DNA of 64,000 nucleotides from an uncultured bacterium (GCA_965603355.1 CBFDCQ010000001.1:106350-170349), one strand, 5' to 3'. Numbered from the stretch's first letter, positions 25,144 to 61,479 are shown. Translations and numbers: made by a program. Notes: generated from the letters alone by a model not told the origin.

Positions 25144-27594
25144 CTAGTCATCGTGGGGCGGCGACACGTCTACTCCGCCGCAACAAACGTTTGCCGCATC
25201 TGGTGCTGTGCAGCACGCACGGGAGTAGTCCGGCGATACTCGGCGCAGTCGTTCGACGACTTCCGGCAGGGCCCCGAGCACGTAATCTACATCTTCCTGA
25301 GTATTGTCTCGTCCCAGAGAGAATCGGATACTCGCGTGTGCCGTTGTAGGCGTGACGCCCATCGCGCGAAGAACGTGAGAAGGTTCGACCGAGCCGGACG
25401 TACATGCTGAACCGGTGGACACCGCGATACCTTTCATGTCCAGACCAATAAGAAGCGCTTCCCCCTCGGCACACTCGAAACTCATGTTGAGCATGTTAGG
25501 CAGCCGGCTCGCGACCGAACCGTTTGTCCGCACGAGATCGATCCGCTCCTTTATACCGACCTCAAGCCGATCCCGAAGCGCCGCGAGACGAGCCGACTCA
25601 GCAGCCGCATCGCTGCACGCAAGCTCGATCGCTCTGGCGAAACCGACTATCCCCGGCACGTTCTCCGTACCTGCGCGACGGTTCCGTTCCTGATACCCCC
25701 CGTGCAGCAATGGCGCGATCCGTGTGCCTTTCCTGCTGTACAGCGCGCCTACTCCTTTCGGACCATAGAGCTTGTGCGCCGATATAGTCAGCAGAGCCAC
25801 GTTGAGCCGGTTCACATCGACCGGCATCTTTCCAACAGCTTGGACGGCGTCCGTATGGAAGGCAATTCCTCTTTGCCTGGCGATATCAGCAAGATCATCA
25901 ATAGGTTGAACCGTGCCGGTCTCACTGTTTGCGAGCGTAACGGAAACCAGGGTCGTGTCCGGCGTGAGAGCTTCTCGCAAGCTTTCCGGATCGACCAGCC
26001 CGTCACCGTCAACCGGCAGATAACTTGACGAGAACTCTCTGTCTTCCAGTTCACGAAAGCAATTGAGTACCGAGTGATGTTCGATCTGGGACGTCACGAT
26101 GTGCCTGGCCCTCTTCTCGTATGCGCGGGCCGCACCCTTGACCGCCATATTGTTGCCCTCGGTTCCCCCGCTGGTGAAGTATATCTCCGTGGGATCGGCG
26201 CCGATGCAGTCTGCAACCGTGTTCCGCGCGTCCTCGACGGCCTTTCGCGCCTCCTGCCCGCAAGTATGTATGCTGGAAGCGTTGCCGAACGTGCCGGTGA
26301 AATACGGCAGCATCGCCTCCAGCACTTCTTCCCGGACGGGCGTCGTGGCTGCATGGTCCATGTACACTTTTCGCATTGTTTCTCTCCTACGTGTACAACC
26401 TATCGGGGCCGTGTCGGATTCCCCGGAGACGTAGGGGCGAGGCATGCCGCGCCCCGACAAAGCATCCATGGCTTGCGCGAGATCGTCGATCAAGTCTTCA
26501 GCGTCCTCGAGTCCCACCGAGAGTCGAACCAGCCTGTCGTTTATGCCGAGGCGGTCGCACTCTTCACGCGGATAACTCAGATGCGTCATACGCGCCGGCA
26601 ACGTTACGATGCTCTCAACGGCGCCCAGGCTCACCGCGAGCGACCAGAGCTTCACCTTTTGCAACACCCGTTTGGCAACATCTTCGTCACGCGCCAGGAA
26701 CGATACCATCGCGCCGCCGCCGGAAGCCTGTCTCGCGTGGATATCGTTATCCGGATGCGTATCGAGACCCGGGTACAACACCTGCTCCACGTCGGCTCGG
26801 TCGAGCAGCCACTCCGCGATCTGTCGCGCGCTCTCTTGCTGCACGTTCATCCTGGCTTTCAGTGTCTTCATCCCCCTCATGAGAAGCCAGCAATCGAAAG
26901 GGGAGGGGACGGCACCTACTGCGTTTTGACGAAAATGTATCTTCTTCGCCAACTTATCATCATTGACCACCGCTAATCCGGCAATGAGATCGCTGTGTCC
27001 CCCGAGGTACTTCGTAGCGCTGTGAATCACAATGTCCGCGCCGGCCTCCAGAGGCCGCTGAAGATAGGGCGACATGAACGTATTGTCCACCATAAGAAGG
27101 ATGTCCTTCTCGCGCGATATCGCCGACAACTCCCCCAAGTCGGTGATCTTCATCATCGGATTCGACGGGGTCTCGATCAGGATCGCGCGCGTCCTGTCGC
27201 TCAGCGCCGTCTCGACCGCCGCAATGTCCCCGGTATCCACCAGGCTGAACTCTATGCCGAAGCGCGGGAACAATCTGGTCAGGATCCTGTACGTGCCTCC
27301 GTACAACCCCTCGGTGGCTATGACATGGTCGCCGCTCTCCAACAACATCAAGCATGTTGAGATAGCCGCCATACCAGAGGAGAACGCGAATCCGCACTCG
27401 CCGCCCTCCAACAAGGCGATGTACTTCTCAAGCACGTCGCGTGTCGGATTGCCGGTGCGCGAGTAGTCGTATCCACCTTGCTGATCGGGGCTCGTGCGCT
27501 TGAACGTCGAGACCTGATATATCGGTGTACTCAGCGCCCCCGTATGCGGACACGTGCTACCGGGATGGTGTATTAGTCTCGTACCTATTCTCAT
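25144..27594 (-). CDS. in-frame fusion ORF: N-terminal Cys/Met-metabolism PLP enzyme (cystathionine beta-lyase / gamma-synthase family) + C-terminal cysteine desulfurase (IscS/NifS-like)
   Basis: Residues 1-~385 match the MetC/MetB family (YSRTGNPTRDVLEKYIALLEGGE, SATKYLGGHSD, RLSVGLEDAEDLIDDL). Residues ~407-816 are a complete class-I desulfurase (MRKVYMDHAATT..., SAHKLYGPKGVGALY, STGSACTSGS). An internal AGGAGAG-N5-ATG sits at the junction (~26376-26392) and +1 / +2 frame stops occur in the linker, so a 1-nt indel would resolve it into two genes. Confidence 0.7.
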   Translation of the reverse strand: MRIGTRLIHHPGSTCPHTGALSTPIYQVSTFKRTSPDQQGGYDYSRTGNPTRDVLEKYIALLEGGECGFAFSSGMAAISTCLMLLESGDHVIATEGLYGGTYRILTRLFPRFGIEFSLVDTGDIAAVETALSDRTRAILIETPSNPMMKITDLGELSAISREKDILLMVDNTFMSPYLQRPLEAGADIVIHSATKYLGGHSDLIAGLAVVNDDKLAKKIHFRQNAVGAVPSPFDCWLLMRGMKTLKARMNVQQESARQIAEWLLDRADVEQVLYPGLDTHPDNDIHARQASGGGAMVSFLARDEDVAKRVLQKVKLWSLAVSLGAVESIVTLPARMTHLSYPREECDRLGINDRLVRLSVGLEDAEDLIDDLAQAMDALSGRGMPRPYVSGESDTAPIGCTRRRETMRKVYMDHAATTPVREEVLEAMLPYFTGTFGNASSIHTCGQEARKAVEDARNTVADCIGADPTEIYFTSGGTEGNNMAVKGAARAYEKRARHIVTSQIEHHSVLNCFRELEDREFSSSYLPVDGDGLVDPESLREALTPDTTLVSVTLANSETGTVQPIDDLADIARQRGIAFHTDAVQAVGKMPVDVNRLNVALLTISAHKLYGPKGVGALYSRKGTRIAPLLHGGYQERNRRAGTENVPGIVGFARAIELACSDAAAESARLAALRDRLEVGIKERIDLVRTNGSVASRLPNMLNMSFECAEGEALLIGLDMKGIAVSTGSACTSGSVEPSHVLRAMGVTPTTAHASIRFSLGRDNTQEDVDYVLGALPEVVERLRRVSPDYSRACCTAPDAANVCCGGVDVSPPHDD

Positions 27595-29237: not shown

Positions 29238-30473
29238 CTAGAAGGAGGATTCCAGAAGTGCCGATTCCGCTTGACGAATGATCTCATCCCACTGCAGACC
29301 TTGCTCTGTGGGGGCAACGGCGGACGTGCCGGTACGTATCGCAGCGGTTTCGGCAATGCAACGCTCGCAAACGTTACATGATTCCAACTTCGATCTCAGT
29401 CTCTTCTCAACAGTCTGCGCGCCTTTGGCGTCGGTGTTCGGCAGAAGAACGATGAACCCGTTCTCTCCGTAACGAGCGGCCGTATCGATCTCACGTATCT
29501 CGTGCCACATTACTTGTGTGCACTTCTCGCGTACCGGTGCTTCAACATCCTTCAAAGGAACTCTAGTGTCGTCGGGTGCGGGTTCCAGGCTGACAATGAG
29601 GCACGACACGGGCTCTGTAAACCGGCCCGCCCGCTTAGCTTCAACCCGGACGCGTTTCTGGAACTCATCGTAGCTGACGAAGTTGTCGTAACCGCGCCAG
29701 GCGTCCGGCACAGGTGGCGCCGGAGCGGCTGCCGTTGTGCGGACGGCACCCGCGGTGCGGACGGTCCCCGGTATACAGGTCTGCTTGATCCCTTTCTCGA
29801 CATCCTCAATCACGCGGCACGCTTCGGGTCCATAGCAGTACTTAAGGGTCCTGTCAGATATGTCAACCGAGATTATCGGGTGACGCCGCGCAGCTATAAT
29901 GCCGGCGATCCAGTAGCCAACGCTCGTTACGGCGAGCACGAACAAGAGTCTTATGCACCCCGTGATCATTCCAGCGTTCTTCGCGCCGAAATCGCCCAGC
30001 CTCTCGCACAACGCATTGACGAAACCGAAGGCGTTCATGCGCGGGCTGACCGCGTCTATGATCACGAATGCCGCCGATGTGATCGCCACGCTAACTGCCG
30101 TCTTGATCGCAAGCCGGTGCCTGTTCAGCAACTGCTGCCAGCGGGAAGGATACAGTCTGCGCCAGGCAATCTGTACCAGACTCTTGGTTACCTCAGAGAA
30201 TGCCTCTCGTTCGAGCCCCGCATTAACCTTTTCGGTCGCATCGGCGCGACGATGGAAATACGTGCCGGTAACCAGCAAAGGATGTGGTCGCGGTTTCTCG
30301 TCAACGGCAACGAAGCTGTAGGCGCCGTCTAGCTCTGAAGTGTATATCCGGAACTCCTCCAGGAGCGGGAGGTCACTGGTGTCCTCCTGCCTATACCTGA
30401 GCAGGGTGAGACGCCCATGGAGATTGTCCGGCAAGGTGAACGTTCTTAGCTGAGCCAATCTCTCTTCGCTCAC
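29238..30473 (-). CDS. membrane protein with a degenerate GGDEF (diguanylate-cyclase-like) C-terminal domain
   Basis: Central TM helices (AVSVAITSAAFVIIDAV, ITGCIRLLFVLAVTSVGYWIAGIIAA). The C-terminal domain has the GGDEF fold pattern but 'RYGENGF' replaces RYGGEEF, so it is probably catalytically inactive. Confidence 0.55.
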   Translation of the reverse strand: MSEERLAQLRTFTLPDNLHGRLTLLRYRQEDTSDLPLLEEFRIYTSELDGAYSFVAVDEKPRPHPLLVTGTYFHRRADATEKVNAGLEREAFSEVTKSLVQIAWRRLYPSRWQQLLNRHRLAIKTAVSVAITSAAFVIIDAVSPRMNAFGFVNALCERLGDFGAKNAGMITGCIRLLFVLAVTSVGYWIAGIIAARRHPIISVDISDRTLKYCYGPEACRVIEDVEKGIKQTCIPGTVRTAGAVRTTAAAPAPPVPDAWRGYDNFVSYDEFQKRVRVEAKRAGRFTEPVSCLIVSLEPAPDDTRVPLKDVEAPVREKCTQVMWHEIREIDTAARYGENGFIVLLPNTDAKGAQTVEKRLRSKLESCNVCERCIAETAAIRTGTSAVAPTEQGLQWDEIIRQAESALLESSF

Positions 30474-30628: not shown

Positions 30629-31765
30629 TCAGAACCCCATCAACCCGCAGCACCGCGCGCAGATCGGGAACATGCCGTGCTCCCTGAGCGCGTTGCGGAA
30701 CCGCCAGTACGGCTCGCCGTGGAAGATCTCGAGGATGCTCTCCTCCTTGATGTTGCCGGCCACATAGTCCGGATAGTCGCGGCACGTTGCCACGTCGCCG
30801 TTGGGCATCACCTCGGCAACAAGCCAGGGCGCCACGCACTTGTCGTAACCGAAAAAATTCTGAGGTTCCACGTAGTAGCGGGGTATCTCCTCGATCTTCA
30901 GTTCCGGCAGGAACAGGTATGGAAAGCTGTACCGCTTCCCTCGGATCCTTCTAACGCTCTCCTGCACGGCGGCGACATCTATTCCGCCGACGGGAATAAG
31001 ATAACCCTTCCATGCTTTAGGCTCGCATCCCAGCACGCGTTGCATAATCTCGCAATGTCTCTGACCGATCTCCTCCGTCGTGAACCAGGAGTAGTACACG
31101 ATGACACAATCCGCCCCAAGCTCCTCAGCCACATCGAAGATCTTATCGAGCACGTGGGCGTTGTCCCTTGAAACCGTGGACAGGATCATAATGTAGGGTT
31201 TTCTCTTCTTCCGGTCCGCCCTGACCGTCTTCAGCCTTTCAATACTCCCGGCCAGCGCTTCGAAGCACCCGGGCATTCCGCGAATTTCGTCGTGGATCGC
31301 CGGCGGACCGTCCACCGACAGCATCAGCGCATCCCATCCCGTATCGACGATCTCCTCCGCGTGCTCCTCCAACCTCGTCGCGTTCGTGACAACCGCAACG
31401 TTGAAATCCTTCTCTTTCATGTAACCTACCAACGGCATCAGGTCCTTGTACAGAAAAGGTTCCCCTCCCCAGATGTAGATGAACGGCTTGATCCGGGCAA
31501 CATCGTCCACCATCCTGCGGTACACGTCCAGCGGAACCGTTTCCCGAATTACCTCGGTAGGTTTCCCGAAGTTGTACCCGCTTTCACCCCACTGTCCGCA
31601 CATCTTGCATCGTAGGTTGCAGGCGTTGGTGATCTTCATGCTGATCTGGCGCAGCTTAGCTTTCGAGCCATCGAAATCGCGATCGAAACGCGTGAAGAAC
31701 TTGCGTCTCGCAAGGTCCCGGATCGCCCGGTACAGAACGTCCGGTGTTGACGTCATCTTCCACAT
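30629..31765 (-). CDS. radical SAM / SPASM-domain protein
   Basis: CxxxCxxC (CNLRCKMC) cluster motif. The C-terminal Cys-rich SPASM/twitch region is (CVAPW...CRDYPDYVAGN...CARCCG). The start is taken at MWKMTSTP (31765); the ORF-track start at 31891 would overlap the upstream GT2 gene by 110 nt. Confidence 0.75.
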   Translation of the reverse strand: MWKMTSTPDVLYRAIRDLARRKFFTRFDRDFDGSKAKLRQISMKITNACNLRCKMCGQWGESGYNFGKPTEVIRETVPLDVYRRMVDDVARIKPFIYIWGGEPFLYKDLMPLVGYMKEKDFNVAVVTNATRLEEHAEEIVDTGWDALMLSVDGPPAIHDEIRGMPGCFEALAGSIERLKTVRADRKKRKPYIMILSTVSRDNAHVLDKIFDVAEELGADCVIVYYSWFTTEEIGQRHCEIMQRVLGCEPKAWKGYLIPVGGIDVAAVQESVRRIRGKRYSFPYLFLPELKIEEIPRYYVEPQNFFGYDKCVAPWLVAEVMPNGDVATCRDYPDYVAGNIKEESILEIFHGEPYWRFRNALREHGMFPICARCCGLMGF

Positions 31766-31781
31766 GAAACTCAACGGAATT

Positions 31782-33002
31782 CTACTGTACACGGCTATCC
31801 TCTTCCGGGGCAGGCGTTGTCCGCCTGTCACGCTCTGTTTTCTGTACTGCCACCACGCGCCCGTCGCCATCCAACCTGTATGTCGCATCACCCCACCTGA
31901 TGCTGCTCATGAACGCGGTTTTCACCAGACTGAACGCACCCATCAACTGCAACACCGGGGTCAGGACAAACCACCGAAGAACGCTCTGTCCGTCACGGCA
32001 GGTCAGTTTCAACGACGTGTGTGCACCCATTACAACAAGCGAGAAGCCCAGACATATGAACCCAAGAGGTCTAAGAGGTTCACAGAACAAACCCGCGACG
32101 ATCAGGGGTCCGGCCGCTAACATTAGAAGAGCGGTCGGAATGTGTGCGGCCAGTGCGGCAAACCAGAAGGGGCGGACGCAGAACTTGAGAAACAGAATCT
32201 GTCGCGTGAGCCACTCGACCACCTCGCGCACGGATGACACTGCGTTGTTCGACACCACCAGACACCGAGGATCGTAAACCACACTCATCCTCTTCCGACG
32301 CAACAGGTGCAACAGAGTCATATCGTCCACGACCGTCCGGCTCCATTCGTCCGCTACCCCCAATTTCTCAAATGTGCTCGATCGAATCGCCGTAGCGCCT
32401 CCCCACACGGCCCTCGTCGAAGTGCAGGACATAAACGCCCCCTGATACGCTACCACCATCGAGTGCAGCGTGCCCGCAAGAGTCCGACGAGCCGGGGTGA
32501 GCCAGCGAAAACCACTGGCGACCGAAACGTCGTCCGCAGTCAGAGAGCTCACCAGCATGGACAGCCATTCTCGAGGTGGGCGAATGTCCGCGTCGCAGAA
32601 CACAAACAGCTCGCTTCCGGAGTCCTGCGCAAGTCCTTTCAGAAGGTTATGGTTCTTCTGCCCGCACGACACCGCCGGACCGGCGACCACATGGCGACAA
32701 TGAGGGTGACGACGCACCACACGCTCGATTGCCCGGATGGCGGGATCCTCGTAGCTTTCAGATATGTATGTGACGGTGAAATTCTCGTACTCCTGGCACG
32801 CCACGGCTTCCAGGTTGTCCGCAAGCTCCGGGAACGCGCCCTTACAGGGCACGAACACACCCGCGCGCGCAGGACGCGCCGACCGCGCCGGCCGACTACG
32901 CTTCTCGAACAGCACGTGCACATAGAATAGATTTCGCAAACCGGGGACAATGTGCACGAGCGCGAGAACGAATGTTCCTATCAGAAAGTAGTGCCAGTAC
33001 AC
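31782..33002 (-). CDS. membrane-anchored family-2 glycosyltransferase (ceramide glucosyltransferase / GT21-like)
   Basis: N-terminal TM, then the GT-A motifs (VTYISESYEDP, FVFCDADIRPPREW; DAD). C-terminal TM helices are typical of ceramide glucosyltransferase / HpnI-like enzymes. Confidence 0.7.
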   Translation of the reverse strand: MYWHYFLIGTFVLALVHIVPGLRNLFYVHVLFEKRSRPARSARPARAGVFVPCKGAFPELADNLEAVACQEYENFTVTYISESYEDPAIRAIERVVRRHPHCRHVVAGPAVSCGQKNHNLLKGLAQDSGSELFVFCDADIRPPREWLSMLVSSLTADDVSVASGFRWLTPARRTLAGTLHSMVVAYQGAFMSCTSTRAVWGGATAIRSSTFEKLGVADEWSRTVVDDMTLLHLLRRKRMSVVYDPRCLVVSNNAVSSVREVVEWLTRQILFLKFCVRPFWFAALAAHIPTALLMLAAGPLIVAGLFCEPLRPLGFICLGFSLVVMGAHTSLKLTCRDGQSVLRWFVLTPVLQLMGAFSLVKTAFMSSIRWGDATYRLDGDGRVVAVQKTERDRRTTPAPEEDSRVQ

Positions 33003-33307
33003 GCTCCGCTCTCTTCCGAATTAACGCCGTTCTTGTCAGAAAGGCCTAATAACCCCCAAGAATCCGGTATCTCTTATAGCACACTTGAGATTAAGAAGTC
33101 GATAGGGTCACGTGCGAGGGTGCTCAAAACGCGTGCCCATGCAGCAGGGCGCAGCACGCACGCGAAACTGGACAGCACGAAAAGACTTAGACTAGACCGC
33201 AATCTTTATAGCGGCGGTTCAAGGCGGACAGGCAGGCTGACTAAGACAGATTTCAGTGTCACCCGCGCCCGTTGGCAGCCCCGCCCGCAGCGCTTCCGGC
33301 TACGCGG

Positions 33308-33523
33308 TCACCCACCGAGGCTCAGGACCGCGCACTTTCCCGTCAGCCGCTGAAACCAAGCGCAGTGTTCTCCAAGACAGTGGCCTGTAGCCGCCTCGGC
33401 AAAGTCCGCTCCTTCCTCCGTGAAGTCGGCGATATCTCCCTCCTGTTTCTGGACTTCCTTTTCGCTGCACAGGAGTAGTGCCCTTACTATGCTGAAGAAC
33501 GGACAGGCTTTGCTCGTTACCAT
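33308..33523 (-). CDS. small Cys-containing hypothetical protein (71 aa) with a strong Shine-Dalgarno site
   Basis: The minus-strand sequence reads GAAAGGAGGGGGTAGA-ATG, i.e. AAGGAGG then a 7-nt spacer. It has 5 Cys (CPFF, C19, CLGEHC, C64). It is the only well-initiated ORF in the 875-nt spacer between the GT2 and LtaS-like genes. Confidence 0.4.
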   Translation of the reverse strand: MVTSKACPFFSIVRALLLCSEKEVQKQEGDIADFTEEGADFAEAATGHCLGEHCAWFQRLTGKCAVLSLGG

Positions 33524-33878
33524 TCTACCCCCTCCTTTCGTGCCCGCGCCTATCCTTCCCCCACCATTCTACGCCCGAAACGCCTCTAATCGCAAGAAGA
33601 AAATGGCTCGGGAGTTTCCGTTCCGCCCGGTCCCCGCCGGTTTCCGCAAGAGGGCTGGACTTCCCGGCAGCGTTTTGCATGAAACCTGCCGATCTGATAT
33701 ACTCTGGTTGGTTTTGGCTAACTGAGACGGCACGACGCGCATGGAATGCCGCGATATCATGGGATCTTCGCTCTATAGTCGTTATTTCACACGCTCTGTA
33801 AGGGGATCGCCCGCATGAATCGGGCTGAGAATGTTGCATGCGTTGGACATGCCGAAACGGAGCGTCAGTGGCAACTGA

Positions 33879-35714
33879 GTGGATAGCGCAATGAAGCTGA
33901 AAAGACTTAGTGCAACCCTGTCCGTTGGGATAATCTTCGGTTTTGTGGTGGGCGGTATCGTTTCCTTTGACTTCGTCCGATCCAACCGCTATGTCCAGTA
34001 TGACATGCTCAGGTCGGTCTTTCTCAGCTTTCAGGAATCATTGAACAGATGGGTGTTGTGGTTCGTTGTTATCTCGGTTGTTCTGTCACTTCTCGCGCTC
34101 GTTGCAACGGTTGTAGCGAGACGTGTACTGAAATCGTTTCGCTCAGCTGCGGCTGGGATTGACGGCCAGGAATATCTGCTGAAATTTCATTTGGTCTGTC
34201 TCGTCTGCTCCATCTTCTTTTTCTGCGGCGGATGGGCGATCAATCATTACTGGCTGCCTTCCAGACTTCACCCCCTAAGTTTGTTGGGCGACGCGGGTAT
34301 CCTGCTTCTGACGATCCTGATGTGGCGGGCATTGCTGAAGGCAAACTGGGGGAATCTGATCCGGATTTTGAGGGGAACAGCGTCCATTCTGGCGGTTTCC
34401 GTACTCGTTCTAAACCTCTCGATAATGGTCGAAGGAAAGATGCACCGCCCAACCGGGCCCAACGTGATCCTGATAGTGGTAGACACTTTGAGGGCTGACC
34501 ATCTCAGTTGTTATGGATACAACAGAAACACCACACCCGTCATTGATGAGCTGTCAGAACAGTCGGTACTCTTCAGAAACGCCATTTCGTCCGCTCCATG
34601 GACCACCCCATCTGTAGTGACGACATTCACGTCGCAGTATCCGGCCGCGGTCGGCATTGAAGCGGAGCCGATAGTGTTGGGCAATGAGTTTCTGACCTTG
34701 GCAGAGATACTCAAGGGCGGCAACTATGACACTCAAGGCATAGTCTCTCATATCCTTGTCTCCTCCACCTTGGGGTTCGATCAAGGATTCAACTCCTACG
34801 ATGAGGAAAATGCAAGAGGAGAAGACCACATCTCTTCCCCATCCATCACAGAAAAGGCTATCTCCTATATAGAGAGGCGCGGGAACGACAAGTTCTTCCT
34901 GTTCCTGCATTACTTCGACCCGCACCATTCATACATCCTACATGAAGACTACGACTATTACCCGGACTATGACGGTGCGTTGTACAGCGGCCAGAACGTG
35001 GAAGAATTAAGGAAAAAGGCGCCGGACATGGCGGCCGATGATATTGAGTTTGTGAAGGCGTTATACGATTCCGAAATTGCATTTACAGACGGCTACATAG
35101 GAGTCCTCTTCAACAAGCTGAAGGATTTGGGGCTATATGATGACACGCTGATCGTCGTTACTGCCGATCACGGAGAAGAGTTCCTGGAGAGGGGAGATTA
35201 TTGGATCGGGCACGCCAGGAAACTCTATCAAGAACAGATTCACGTTCCCCTAATCATAAAGCCGGCGGGGGAACGCAGACAGGAAATCATGGAAGAATAT
35301 GTGAGTCTCATGGACTTGATGCCCACCATTGTCGATAGCGCGGACTTGACCATTCCTGCCAGCTACCAACACGAAGGGGAGACTCTCCGTATGGACGATG
35401 AGCGCCAGCCGAGAGACAGTGTAATAGTCAGCGACACGAAGAGTTTCTCCGATCTGCGGTCGCTGATATTGAACGGATGGAAGCTGATCTACGACGCAGA
35501 GACGGATTCAAGAGCACTCTATGATTTGAGAAAAGACCCGGCAGAATCCGGCAATGTCGCGATGGAGAACCGGGAGTTTCTGACGGAAATGGAGGCAATC
35601 CTGCGAGATTGGAACGACCACGTCAATTCGGGAAAATCACAGACGGACGCGCGGCTGCCCAAGTTCACGGAAGAACAGCTGGAGCGCCTGCGGGGATTAG
35701 GTTATGCCCAGTGA
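33879..35714 (+). CDS. membrane-anchored sulfatase-fold (alkaline-phosphatase superfamily) enzyme, LtaS / phosphoglycerol-transferase-like with a Thr nucleophile
   Basis: Five N-terminal TM helices precede an extracytoplasmic sulfatase-fold domain (NVILIVVDTLRADHLSCYGY...SSAPWTTPSVVT). The FGly motif C/S-x-P-x-R is replaced by W-T-T-P-S, i.e. Thr at the nucleophile position and no Arg. A metal-binding DHGE is present. Confidence 0.75.
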   Translation: MDSAMKLKRLSATLSVGIIFGFVVGGIVSFDFVRSNRYVQYDMLRSVFLSFQESLNRWVLWFVVISVVLSLLALVATVVARRVLKSFRSAAAGIDGQEYLLKFHLVCLVCSIFFFCGGWAINHYWLPSRLHPLSLLGDAGILLLTILMWRALLKANWGNLIRILRGTASILAVSVLVLNLSIMVEGKMHRPTGPNVILIVVDTLRADHLSCYGYNRNTTPVIDELSEQSVLFRNAISSAPWTTPSVVTTFTSQYPAAVGIEAEPIVLGNEFLTLAEILKGGNYDTQGIVSHILVSSTLGFDQGFNSYDEENARGEDHISSPSITEKAISYIERRGNDKFFLFLHYFDPHHSYILHEDYDYYPDYDGALYSGQNVEELRKKAPDMAADDIEFVKALYDSEIAFTDGYIGVLFNKLKDLGLYDDTLIVVTADHGEEFLERGDYWIGHARKLYQEQIHVPLIIKPAGERRQEIMEEYVSLMDLMPTIVDSADLTIPASYQHEGETLRMDDERQPRDSVIVSDTKSFSDLRSLILNGWKLIYDAETDSRALYDLRKDPAESGNVAMENREFLTEMEAILRDWNDHVNSGKSQTDARLPKFTEEQLERLRGLGYAQ

Positions 35715-35740: not shown

Positions 35741-37132
35741 TCACAGATCAAACGTCTCGCCTCTATTGGGAACAGTAACGTCCTCGAATCCGCCGCCCCG
35801 CAGGTTGTCGGCGCACGCGAGACACTGGTCCTCGTCTCCATGCACGACGAAAACTCGCAACCTGGCCCCGTCAACACTCTGCGCATACGTGAGCAGGCCG
35901 TTCTTGTCGGCATGAGCGCTGTACCCGTTCATCACCCTGATCTCAGCGCGCACGTCGTGCTCTTCGCCCAGTATCCTAACGCGTTTGTGTTTTTCCACAA
36001 GACGTCTTCCCAACGTGTTCTCAGCCTGGTATCCCACTATCAGCATGGTATTCTTGGGATCGCCGATGTTGTTCTTCAGATGGTGCAATATTCTGCCTGC
36101 CTCGCACATGCCCGACGCCGAGATAATGATGCACGGCGTCTCTATATTGTTCAGGCATTTCGACTCCTCCACGTTAGCTATATACTGGAGTCTGCCGAAA
36201 CCGAACGGGTCCTTGTGGCCCCGGAGCATCTCAATCGCCTCCTCATCGTAACATTCGGGGTGCATTCGGAATATCTCCGTCGCGTTCGTGGAAAGAGGGC
36301 TATCAACGAAAATCGGTATCGCCGGAAGCTCGCCCTTGTCGAAGAGCCCGTGCAGTGAGTAGACGATATTCTGTGTTCTTCCAACACTGAACGCCGGGAT
36401 GATGATCTTTCCGCCACGGCTGATGGTCTGCGAAACCACCTCGTGCAGTTTGCCCTCCATGTCGACGATATCATCATGCAGCCGGTTGCCGTAAGTCGCC
36501 TCGGTTATGTAGACATCGGCATTCTTCACAACCGTGGGATCCTCGAGAATGGGCATGTTCTCACGACCAAGGTCGCCCGTAAACAGTATACGCAGCGTCC
36601 GGTCGCCCTCCGTCGCCTCTATGAGTACAACCGCCGATCCCAGAATATGTCCCGCATCGTAGAAAGTCGCTTTCACACCGTTTGTCACGAAGAAAGGTCT
36701 GCCGTACTTCAATCCGACGAAATTACCCAGCGACCGCTTCGCCTCCTCCATCGTATAGATCGGTTCGACAAGCGGTTCGCCCCGCTTCTTCTTGCGTTTG
36801 TTGAGAAACTCGGCATCTCGCTCCTGGATATGCGCGCTGTCCCGAAGCATGATGCTGCACAGATCGCACGTGGCCATGGTTGCATAGATGTTTCCCTCGT
36901 AGCCGTCAGCCACCAGACGCGGAATGATGCCGCTGTGATCGATATGCGCGTGTGAGAGTATCATCGCGTCCATCTTGCCCGGCTCGAACGGCAGGTTGCG
37001 GTTGATCTCGTTGGCAACCTTGCGTTTGCCCTGGTACATACCGCATTCCAGCAACACCCTCTTGTCGTTCACGTGCAGGATGTGCATCGACCCGGTCACC
37101 GTCCTCGCTGCACCCCAGAATGTGATCTTCAT
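35741..37132 (-). CDS. beta-CASP family MBL-fold ribonuclease (CPSF73 / RNase-J-like)
   Basis: MKITFWGAARTVTGS...; MBL motif LSHAHIDHSG; beta-CASP and RNA-specificity C-terminal region. 463 aa. Confidence 0.8.
   Translation of the reverse strand: MKITFWGAARTVTGSMHILHVNDKRVLLECGMYQGKRKVANEINRNLPFEPGKMDAMILSHAHIDHSGIIPRLVADGYEGNIYATMATCDLCSIMLRDSAHIQERDAEFLNKRKKKRGEPLVEPIYTMEEAKRSLGNFVGLKYGRPFFVTNGVKATFYDAGHILGSAVVLIEATEGDRTLRILFTGDLGRENMPILEDPTVVKNADVYITEATYGNRLHDDIVDMEGKLHEVVSQTISRGGKIIIPAFSVGRTQNIVYSLHGLFDKGELPAIPIFVDSPLSTNATEIFRMHPECYDEEAIEMLRGHKDPFGFGRLQYIANVEESKCLNNIETPCIIISASGMCEAGRILHHLKNNIGDPKNTMLIVGYQAENTLGRRLVEKHKRVRILGEEHDVRAEIRVMNGYSAHADKNGLLTYAQSVDGARLRVFVVHGDEDQCLACADNLRGGGFEDVTVPNRGETFDL

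Positions 37133-61403: not shown

Positions 61404-61479
<76 letters not shown>

Follow-up and report, generated by a model that had tools for sequence, protein, structure and literature searches.

A coupled glycosyltransferase and radical SAM gene pair, conserved across bacteria and archaea, that may remodel the sugar of a glycolipid

This article concerns a pair of genes in an uncultured bacterium, found in a stretch of DNA 64,000 nucleotides (nt) long (GCA_965603355.1 CBFDCQ010000001.1:106350-170349), which we call the window and within which positions 30,629-35,714 are the region under study. The first gene encodes a membrane glycosyltransferase resembling family GT21 and the second a radical S-adenosylmethionine (SAM) enzyme of the SPASM type. 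The two are translationally coupled, in that order, and they are the functional core of the region. Two further genes stand beside them, one for a small cysteine-containing protein and one for a protein that joins five transmembrane helices to a sulfatase fold, and both have a limited spread. By analogy with known systems, we propose that the pair would glycosylate a membrane-lipid or lipid-linked acceptor, the radical SAM enzyme then remodeling the sugar by radical chemistry, a proposal to which we give an even chance of being right.

The pair stands out through its recurrence. A scan of one genome for each GTDB species found 170 relatives of the radical SAM enzyme; the counts of loci given here cover the best 80 of these 170, comprising 46 bacterial and 34 archaeal loci, in which open reading frames (ORFs) were called and clustered and family members located by hidden Markov models. 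A gene of the GT2 superfamily lies within 500 nt of the radical SAM gene in 57 of the 80 species loci (27 of 46 bacterial, 30 of 34 archaeal), and 51 of those 57 neighbors are on the same strand. Such adjacency is far above chance. Bacterial carriers belong to Eremiobacterota/Xenobia, Moduliflexus, Gemmatimonadota, Acidobacteriota, Spirochaetia, Poribacteria, KSB1, Aminicenantes and Fidelibacterota, with Delta proteobacterium NaphS2 as the cultured carrier; the archaeal ones are mostly Bathyarchaeia, with single loci from Thermoplasmata and Nanoarchaeia, at 43-48% identity. The bacterial partner is usually GT21-like, at ~400 residues, and at times a GT2 of ~300 residues. In archaea, it is a GT2 of ~247 residues encoded immediately downstream of the radical SAM gene, and the pair is embedded among unrelated housekeeping genes; it therefore acts as a self-contained two-gene module. 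Some loci have a GT1 in place of the GT2 (L031 by Pfam, and L044 by clustering with L031). A Pfam census of the two genes on either side of the radical SAM gene returned GT2-type families for 20 of 144 bacterial and 28 of 123 archaeal neighbors, every other family occurring at most seven times. Because the two genes co-occur across lineages, the conserved unit in the window is the GT21-like gene followed by the radical SAM gene. The initial annotation of this DNA had noted their adjacency without recognizing it as a conserved functional unit. Separately, a phosphatase had been considered as an obligatory third component and was downgraded, since GT2 families alone are frequent in the Pfam neighbor censuses.

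The features of the region, with the gene that follows the pair, are these:

29238..30473, minus strand: membrane protein with a partial GGDEF domain (Pfam GGDEF, 36.5 bits, profile positions 64-153 only)
30629..31792, minus strand: radical SAM enzyme with a SPASM/twitch-like C-terminal domain, 387 residues (Pfam and homologue lengths)
31782..33002, minus strand: membrane glycosyltransferase of the GT2 superfamily, GT21/HpnI-like, 406 residues (Pfam Glyco_transf_21)
33003..33307, minus strand: spacer of 305 nt from the small ORF to the GT21 gene (hairpin, TTTT, TATAAG block, Shine-Dalgarno sequence and GTG of the GT21 gene)
33308..33523, minus strand: gene for a 71-residue protein with five cysteines (Shine-Dalgarno sequence, codon usage, orthologues in L090 and L091)
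33524..33878, no strand: putative divergent control region (consensus promoter scan; boxes kept in L090 and L091)
33879..35714, plus strand: protein with five transmembrane helices and a sulfatase fold, alkaline-phosphatase superfamily (Pfam Sulfatase; Thr242 at the position of the cysteine that forms formylglycine)

All four ORFs of the region are present where the initial annotation had placed them, with two starts now corrected. The open frame of the radical SAM gene is 30629..31891 on the minus strand, and on the strength of the ORF list and homologues we moved its start to the GTG at 31792; the homologues are 378-398 residues long (n ~120), including the 99%-identical P0121 at 387 residues, and for that reason we take this GTG to be the true start. 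It overlaps the stop of the glycosyltransferase gene by 11 nt, with the identical overlap annotated in L009 and L090, and both proteins pass their Pfam models; the pair is adjacent on the minus strand. The likely start of the sulfatase-fold gene is the ATG at 33891, which gives 607 residues and matches P0001; an exact look-up of the form starting at GTG returned no match, the recorded gene beginning at the downstream ATG. The spacer between the glycosyltransferase gene and this divergent gene (33003..33878) is 876 nt long, one more than first reported, and does hold a well-initiated ORF for 71 residues with cysteines. The complete four-gene arrangement recurs in two close relatives only, L090 and L091, and to that extent the neighborhood described in the initial annotation is kept; beyond those two it is the glycosyltransferase–radical SAM pair alone that recurs. 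The GGDEF gene lies 155 nt downstream of the radical SAM gene on the same strand and is present in L090 and L091, not in L007 or L092. That its product is part of the unit is doubtful.

The radical SAM enzyme passes the Pfam models Radical_SAM (PF04055; 69.6 bits, cut-off 29.5) and SPASM (46.6 bits, cut-off 21.5). All its NCBIfam scores fall well short of the cut-offs, the best being a tungsten-cofactor maturase model at 103 against 380 bits; models for PapB, StsB and GggB give 53-54 bits against cut-offs of 340-650. Across 32 aligned members, which share 49-82% identity with the window protein, the motifs CNLRCxxC (CNLRCKMC in full) and GGEPF are invariant, as are five C-terminal cysteines, C319, C337, C378, C381 and C382. 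The SPASM pattern has seven cysteines for two auxiliary 4Fe-4S clusters, and although the SPASM profile passes, this enzyme keeps five at its C terminus, which suggests one auxiliary cluster and possibly more. A profile search aligns residues 319-384 with the one-cluster twitch region of BtrN. Searched with Foldseek against the Protein Data Bank (PDB), the predicted structure retrieves SkfB, BlsE, SuiB, DesII, PqqE, CteB, anSME, viperin and MoaA with TM-scores of ~0.5-0.6 and 12-20% identity (nearest 14-18%). From the Foldseek and BtrN matches, the modeled enzyme is placed as a member of the SPASM/twitch clade with no close solved relative, and the sugar-acting enzymes (BlsE, DesII and the twitch region of BtrN) are as near to it as the peptide-acting ones. 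Its AlphaFold2 model, with a mean predicted local distance difference test (pLDDT) score of 86, has two helices only (residues 7-39) ahead of the core, and so the enzyme is predicted to have no peptide-binding domain of the RRE type. A role in defense was considered and rejected, the PADLOC signal being a generic similarity to the viperin core. Our literature searches for a lipid system combining a radical SAM enzyme and a glycosyltransferase returned a general review and no paper on this family; the review of lipid-modifying radical SAM enzymes lists Tes, Mss, Gms, GrsA/B, Gmm, Cds, HpnH/J/P/R, Jaw5 and the ladderane enzymes.

The glycosyltransferase matches Pfam Glyco_transf_21 (PF13506) at 47 bits, with a cut-off of 21.7, and its best NCBIfam match is HpnI (TIGR03472), which it matches over the full length at 85.3 bits against a cut-off of 310. 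The partner enzyme of NaphS2 behaves likewise, with HpnI as its best full-length match far below the cut-off. Hydrophobic segments lie at the N terminus (residues 1-25), and several more fall within residues 279-331 toward the C terminus; the family conserves the motifs PxKG, QKNHNL, DxD (as FCDAD), VVDD and RQ, and several homologues carry the JGI annotation ceramide glucosyltransferase. Pgt, the processive glycosyl-diacylglycerol synthase of Agrobacterium and Mesorhizobium, is a natural comparison: we take the Agrobacterium enzyme to belong to GT21, whose Pfam model the window protein passes, although no radical SAM partner has been described for Pgt. Diacylglycerol or ceramide is the acceptor that Agrobacterium Pgt glycosylates (PMC3972451). 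As a membrane glycosyltransferase with a full-length match to HpnI, the window enzyme points to a lipid alcohol as its probable acceptor.

These features shape the mechanism that we propose. At the cytoplasmic face, the membrane-embedded glycosyltransferase would take a hexose from its nucleotide-sugar donor and attach it to an acceptor that is a membrane lipid or is linked to a lipid. The radical SAM enzyme, using a 5'-deoxyadenosyl radical and at least one auxiliary Fe-S cluster, would then abstract a hydrogen from the newly attached sugar and remodel it, candidate outcomes being oxidation, epimerization, or contraction of the ring, which would yield a carbocyclic head group. That both enzymes act on the same sugar is something we infer, as we do the lipid acceptor, the type of reaction and the topology. 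The glycosyltransferase partner, its likeness to HpnI, the predicted lack of an RRE domain and the sugar-acting structural neighbors all count toward the remodeling of a lipid-linked sugar. So does a lipid head-group or phosphoryl context seen at several loci. In four Bathyarchaeia (L062, L073, L074 and L084; L073:8887-9849), a PAP2_3 membrane protein is encoded directly upstream of the pair, with phosphoinositol dihydroceramide synthase as its best NCBIfam match (82 bits, cut-off 480). Threonine- or serine-type sulfatase-fold genes adjoin some bacterial radical SAM genes, as described below. The NaphS2 locus (L052:8826-15640) carries, on one strand, genes for a sulfotransferase, the radical SAM enzyme, the GT21 enzyme, a classical alkaline phosphatase and a YibE/F membrane protein; its alkaline phosphatase and sulfotransferase belong to the same context, and its gene order hints at a sulfated product.

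Coupling a glycosyltransferase to a radical sugar remodeler is a known logic; what is different here is a radical SAM family that has no curated model near it. In the HpnI/HpnJ system, which leads from bacteriohopanetetrol glucosamine to the cyclitol ether, a membrane GT2 first adds a hexosamine to a lipid alcohol; the sugar is then remodeled by a radical SAM enzyme (PMC13459092). HpnI, which works with HpnJ and HpnK, is the best curated family for the window glycosyltransferase over its full length, although 85.3 bits against 310 means that the enzyme is not an HpnI orthologue. HpnJ is not in the 25 best NCBIfam matches of the window radical SAM enzyme, and the family also occurs in archaea, where there is no hopanoid synthesis. 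The second precedent is calditol, made from a lipid alcohol by way of a glucosyl-lipid, whose ring is contracted by Cds to an ether-linked cyclopentyl head group; the scheme also postulates an 'unknown phosphatase' (PMC13459092, PMC9385802). Cds (Saci_1489 of Sulfolobus), compared here by its description, follows the same order of glycosyltransferase and then radical SAM enzyme, and our pair is found in 30 of the 34 archaeal loci. Cds homologues occur in Crenarchaeota, Korarchaeota and Marsarchaeota (PMC9385802), whereas the window family is found in Bathyarchaeia, Thermoplasmata and many bacteria.

Several points weigh against lipid-sugar remodeling. Twenty-three of the 80 loci have no adjacent GT2, six of them ending at a contig edge. 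Neither hopanoid genes (such as shc, hpnH, hpnG and hpnK) nor sphingolipid genes were noticed among those ORFs of the 64-kb window that were scanned. HpnJ presumably belongs to a different class of radical SAM enzyme, one that binds B12, and the window family is known from its sequences and a predicted structure. Finally, the glycosyltransferase subfamily varies (GT21-like at ~400 residues, a 300-residue form, the archaeal 247-residue form), while the radical SAM enzyme stays 45-60% identical across bacteria and archaea, a pattern at least as compatible with a small, universal substrate (a nucleotide sugar, for example) as with a sugar bound to lipid. A broader version of our proposal, that the pair is a pathway common to many bacterial phyla, Bathyarchaeia and Thermoplasmata in which the radical SAM enzyme remodels a lipid glycosyl head group, is one that we hold tentatively and consider less likely to be true than false.

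The last of these points leads straight to the main rival, which we judge unlikely but place above every other alternative considered here. The radical SAM enzyme would modify a soluble nucleotide sugar, by epimerization, dehydration or decarboxylation, and the GT2 would then transfer the unusual sugar to a polysaccharide, a protein glycan or a lipid, giving an envelope glycan in place of a remodeled lipid head group, with DesII and BlsE named as the models for such radical sugar chemistry. An enzyme that acts before transfer would account for a conserved radical SAM protein beside glycosyltransferases of shifting subfamily. BlsE and DesII are among its top structural matches, the small GT2 partners are nearest to models of polysaccharide and glycan GT2 families (HpsE, TuaG and EpsD, all far below cut-off), and in the window lineage the gene after the pair encodes a degenerate GGDEF protein. 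Set against this, the commonest bacterial partner is a lipid glycosyltransferase of the HpnI/GT21 kind, PAP2_3 lipid head-group enzymes stand beside some of the pairs, and the Pfam censuses of the two nearest neighbors on each side hold no recurrent genes for nucleotide-sugar synthesis, flippases or polymerases.

The gene for the 71-residue protein raises a different possibility, that the radical SAM enzyme acts on a peptide. The ORF itself has the marks of a real gene: a strong Shine-Dalgarno sequence (AAAGGAGGGGG) sits 5 nt ahead of its ATG, codon usage resembles that of genes in its own frame only, changes relative to L090 and L091 fall preferentially at third codon positions, and the Shine-Dalgarno sequence and promoter-like boxes are kept in both. 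Orthologues of the same length and in the same position are 93% identical in L090 and 85% in L091, and five cysteines are conserved (C7, C19, C49, C53 and C64). In L091, the protein is better conserved than the GT21 enzyme (70%; 88% in L090) or the sulfatase-fold protein (62%). On these comparisons, it looks like a genuine gene that is restricted to one lineage and is not the general substrate of the radical SAM family. It occurs only in the window/L009, L090 and L091. It is missing from L007, L008 and L092, where the GT21–radical SAM pair is kept and the radical SAM enzyme is 81-82% identical, and it was not found in any other locus compared. An exhaustive phmmer search, covering 1.84 billion representatives, returned only its own cluster and three repeat-protein artifacts, and no match was found in Pfam, NCBIfam or PADLOC.

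The initial annotation had read the radical SAM/SPASM gene and the cysteine peptide as the logic of a ribosomally synthesized and post-translationally modified peptide (RiPP). In such a system, akin to mycofactocin, the 71-residue precursor would be cross-linked or oxidized by the radical SAM/SPASM enzyme and glycosylated by the GT2. Mycofactocin clusters do combine a small peptide (MftA), a radical SAM/SPASM enzyme (MftC) and a GT2 (MftF); the small ORF here is gene-like and better conserved than its neighbors in L091, and its conserved C-terminal half contains cysteines. MftC (60.6 bits) and MftF (18.9 bits) are matched only weakly, far under the cut-offs of 265 and 280. The peptide has no C-terminal GVY, genes for MftB, MftD and MftE are absent from the neighborhood, and the model of the radical SAM enzyme has nothing like an RRE. 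The distribution already described also tells against a RiPP: the peptide is confined to the closest relatives, has no homologue outside its own cluster and is not conserved with the pair, whose recurrent neighbor is a glycosyltransferase. The initial annotation had suggested a search for a precursor around the radical SAM gene; among the loci compared, no small-ORF family goes with the pair from lineage to lineage. The RiPP interpretation is not supported by these comparisons, and for this lineage we consider it decidedly improbable. As a separate observation, seven Bathyarchaeia loci (L059:12103-12339, L060, L068, L076, L077, L086 and L088) carry an ORF of ~78 residues just downstream of the GT2, with two cysteine pairs (CPAC ... 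CKNPTC) in a zinc-ribbon-like pattern; it is unrelated to the 71-residue protein of the window.

The DNA between these genes also argues for keeping the small ORF apart from the pair. The 305-nt spacer that separates it from the GT21 gene has 84% column identity among the window, L090 and L091, and is about as conserved as the coding sequence of the small ORF. It contains a G+C-rich hairpin (~33130-33164, minus strand) followed by TTTT, then a TATAAG block and the Shine-Dalgarno sequence and GTG of the GT21 gene. The hairpin is terminator- or attenuator-like and shows compensatory changes in two stem pairs, a weak signal from three sequences only. Its conservation between the two genes suggests that the small ORF is transcribed separately from GT21 in the three sequences compared, and 305 nt with a terminator-like hairpin is a further point against a peptide and its modifying enzymes working as one. 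A consensus scan of the control region located a promoter-like site directed toward the small ORF (33595..33566, minus strand) and another toward the sulfatase-fold gene (33674..33703, plus strand), the latter with a TG-extended TATACT. The -35 boxes of the two divergent sites are ~80 nt apart. Both sets of boxes are kept in L090 and L091, and the remainder of 33524..33878 diverges; their role as promoters is presumed from this pattern. A permissive Rfam scan of 32900-33950 found nothing, and the long spacer therefore contains no known riboswitch or small RNA. At the gathering threshold, Rfam gave one match in the whole window, a tRNA at 61404-61476 (plus strand, 71.5 bits).

We turn now to the sulfatase-fold protein. 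As the initial annotation had it, this is a divergently encoded protein with five transmembrane helices: in the AlphaFold2 model (pLDDT 89), residues 2-188 at the N terminus form five long helices, the same number of hydrophobic segments is predicted, and the protein matches Pfam Sulfatase at 174 bits, with an additional match to SGSH_C. More than 3,000 database matches to the form with five transmembrane helices make this a large family. The five helices and a basic N terminus suggest that the catalytic domain faces outward. The motif W-T-x-P-(S/A)-hydrophobic is kept in 120 of 120 homologues (W-T-T-P-S-V in the window), and its threonine aligns on the catalytic cysteine of C-x-P-x-R in solved sulfatases, the arginine of that motif being replaced by a hydrophobic residue. 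The claim of a threonine at the nucleophile position was thus correct, and with threonine there, and neither cysteine nor Ser-x-P-x-R, the protein is not a formylglycine sulfatase that would require the radical SAM enzyme as an anSME. D202, T242, D430 and H431 are invariant among 36 homologues. A metal set of Asp, nucleophile, Asp and His is that of the phosphonate monoester hydrolase (PMH)/EfAS branch (PMC12421950), and the window protein keeps it, with threonine in place of the formylglycine-forming cysteine. EfAS, a Mn-dependent arylsulfatase, was considered as a precedent for a nucleophile other than cysteine and rejected, since it uses Cys/formylglycine. Every one of the top 50 Foldseek matches in the PDB is an S1 sulfatase, a phosphonate monoester hydrolase or a choline sulfatase, and the best sequence matches there are 4upl, 4upi and 7oz8. 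By sequence and model, then, the protein is best described as a threonine variant of the S1-sulfatase/PMH branch, and it is probably an extracytoplasmic enzyme of phosphoryl transfer or hydrolysis with a threonine nucleophile. In the scheme that we propose, it would carry out phosphoryl transfer or hydrolysis on the outer face of the membrane, separately from the pair.

Assignment to the LtaS or phosphoethanolamine-transferase type, which the initial annotation had made, has to be given up. The protein scores 142 bits for arylsulfatase in NCBIfam, 23.2 against 970 for LtaS (NF053595) and 42.2 against 561 for EptA, the last matching segments around the metal and nucleophile motifs only; none of the LtaS, EptA or MCR structures is within its top 50 Foldseek matches. 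With this goes much of the attraction of a pathway resembling the synthesis of lipoteichoic acid, in which GT21 would make a glycolipid anchor that the five-helix enzyme decorates on the outside with polyol-phosphate or phosphoethanolamine from a phospholipid. The overall architecture is certainly that of LtaS, EptA (MCR) and BcsG: five N-terminal transmembrane helices, a probably extracytoplasmic domain belonging to the alkaline-phosphatase superfamily, threonine as the nucleophile and the Asp/Thr/Asp/His set with its Asp/Asp/His metal site. The gene layout and divergent promoter-like boxes are kept in three related genomes, and genes of the alkaline-phosphatase superfamily recur beside radical SAM–glycosyltransferase pairs in other lineages. 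The catalytic domain, including an SGSH_C-like C-terminal subdomain, nonetheless groups with the arylsulfatases and PMHs and with neither LtaS nor EptA.

Nor is the gene firmly tied to the pair. Orthologues of the sulfatase-fold gene at 53% and 47% identity have neighborhoods with neither GT21 nor the radical SAM gene, and in the next-closest GT21–radical SAM loci (L007, L008 and L092) its place is taken by an M28 peptidase gene. The positional orthologues (L090:5391-7283 and L091:5350-7248) share 74% identity, and each is only 62% identical to the window protein; for the flanking genes, identity between the window and L090 is 78-94%. The GC content of the window gene is also lower (0.524 over 34-36 kb, and 0.63 against ~0.70 at third codon positions). 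This discordance suggests the replacement of an allele or a fast-evolving, surface-exposed protein. Since the orthologues lie elsewhere, the outgroup loci have the peptidase gene and the history is discordant, we conclude that the gene is a lineage-specific neighbor and not part of the core, possibly co-regulated through the shared divergent promoter region. The lipoteichoic-acid logic of the initial annotation finds no backing in this distribution, and we regard it as improbable.

There is one further way in which the sulfatase fold might be connected to the pair. An anSME-like radical SAM enzyme could oxidize sulfatase-fold proteins at their threonine or serine, giving a keto or aldehyde group that works in the manner of formylglycine. 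As with anSME and its Cys/Ser sulfatases, a SPASM-type radical SAM gene here adjoins a sulfatase-fold gene, and anSME is among the structural and sequence neighbors of the window enzyme. The x-P-S portion of the sulfatase motif is kept. Sulfatase-fold genes of other subfamilies without the cysteine, with the motifs T-H/M-P-S-Y, T-L-P-A-H and S-A-P-S-H, lie within ~3 kb of the radical SAM gene in L003, L022, L027, L031, L032, L042 and L050, that is, in 6 of 46 bacterial species loci plus L003, in addition to the window, and none lies in the flanks at 3-10 kb. On the other side of the ledger, some 70 of the 80 loci have no sulfatase-fold neighbor, none of the 34 archaeal loci has one, and the window subfamily is widespread without a radical SAM gene of this family nearby. 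The partner motif is T-x-P-S-V and not C/S-x-P-x-R, the radical SAM enzyme has five conserved C-terminal cysteines only, and its conserved partner is a glycosyltransferase; anSME models are absent from its best NCBIfam matches, every match being far below cut-off, and the anSME-family scores are nowhere near theirs. Enzymes of the alkaline-phosphatase superfamily with a threonine nucleophile (LtaS, EptA and NPP) work unmodified, which also counts against maturation. We find this idea barely credible.

Five of the loci just mentioned share a second recurrent arrangement (L003:6192-9167, L022:8007-11161, L027:514-3619, L031:7998-11158 and L032:7379-11170). On a single strand, they carry a gene for a cytoplasmic-looking, threonine-type sulfatase-fold protein of 438 residues (P-T-H/M-P-S-Y), a SnoaL-like gene and the radical SAM gene. 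Around these are genes for GT1, short-chain dehydrogenases, methyltransferases, an MFS_2 transporter and alpha/beta hydrolases, with AMP-binding and PP-binding domains in L003, and the whole resembles a natural-product or glycolipid gene cluster.

Other neighborhoods of the family deserve a brief record. In L010 and L016-L019, from Xenobia and rumen lineages (for example L017:7357-8064), the radical SAM gene has no adjacent GT2, and upstream of it are genes for a TPR protein and an MTAP-like PNP_UDP_1 phosphorylase, which possibly salvages 5'-deoxyadenosine. In two unrelated lineages, very large BcrAD_BadFG and DUF2229 proteins adjoin the pair (L001:9801-14084 and L036:1-8628); we take these to resemble the plasmalogen synthase PlsA, a weak hint of a lipid context. 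In the window itself, an ORF of 816 residues (25144-27594, minus strand) joins a Cys/Met-metabolism enzyme dependent on pyridoxal phosphate to a class-V aminotransferase of the cysteine desulfurase kind. Its counterpart in L090 is two genes, of 379 and 380 residues, and the window form is either a fusion or the result of a lost stop codon. Convergent with the sulfatase-fold gene (35741-37132, minus strand) is a gene for a beta-CASP metallo-beta-lactamase RNase, which scores 427 bits for the NCBIfam model 'type VII CRISPR-associated Cas14' (cut-off 800) and 308 for aCPSF1, both below cut-off; PADLOC gave no match, and no search for CRISPR arrays was made.

Only two radical SAM enzymes, HpnJ and Cds, are known to reshape lipid head groups, and neither is mechanistically understood. 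The family described here has 170 GTDB species matches in both domains of life and a clear signal in its genomic context. It also has a tractable carrier in cultured NaphS2, where the pair lies between sulfotransferase and alkaline phosphatase genes. The threonine-type sulfatase-fold family with five transmembrane helices is, for its part, an unstudied branch of the arylsulfatases and PMHs in which the nucleophile has apparently been switched. If the pair does remodel lipid head groups, it would give a genetic basis for head-group chemistry, whether calditol-like carbocyclic, ether-linked or epimerized, hitherto unassigned in the organisms that carry it. Were the product a stable modified glycolipid, it would bear on environmental lipid biomarkers in peat, sediment and gut, where Bathyarchaeia, Acidobacteriota, Gemmatimonadota and Eremiobacterota would be the groups of relevance.

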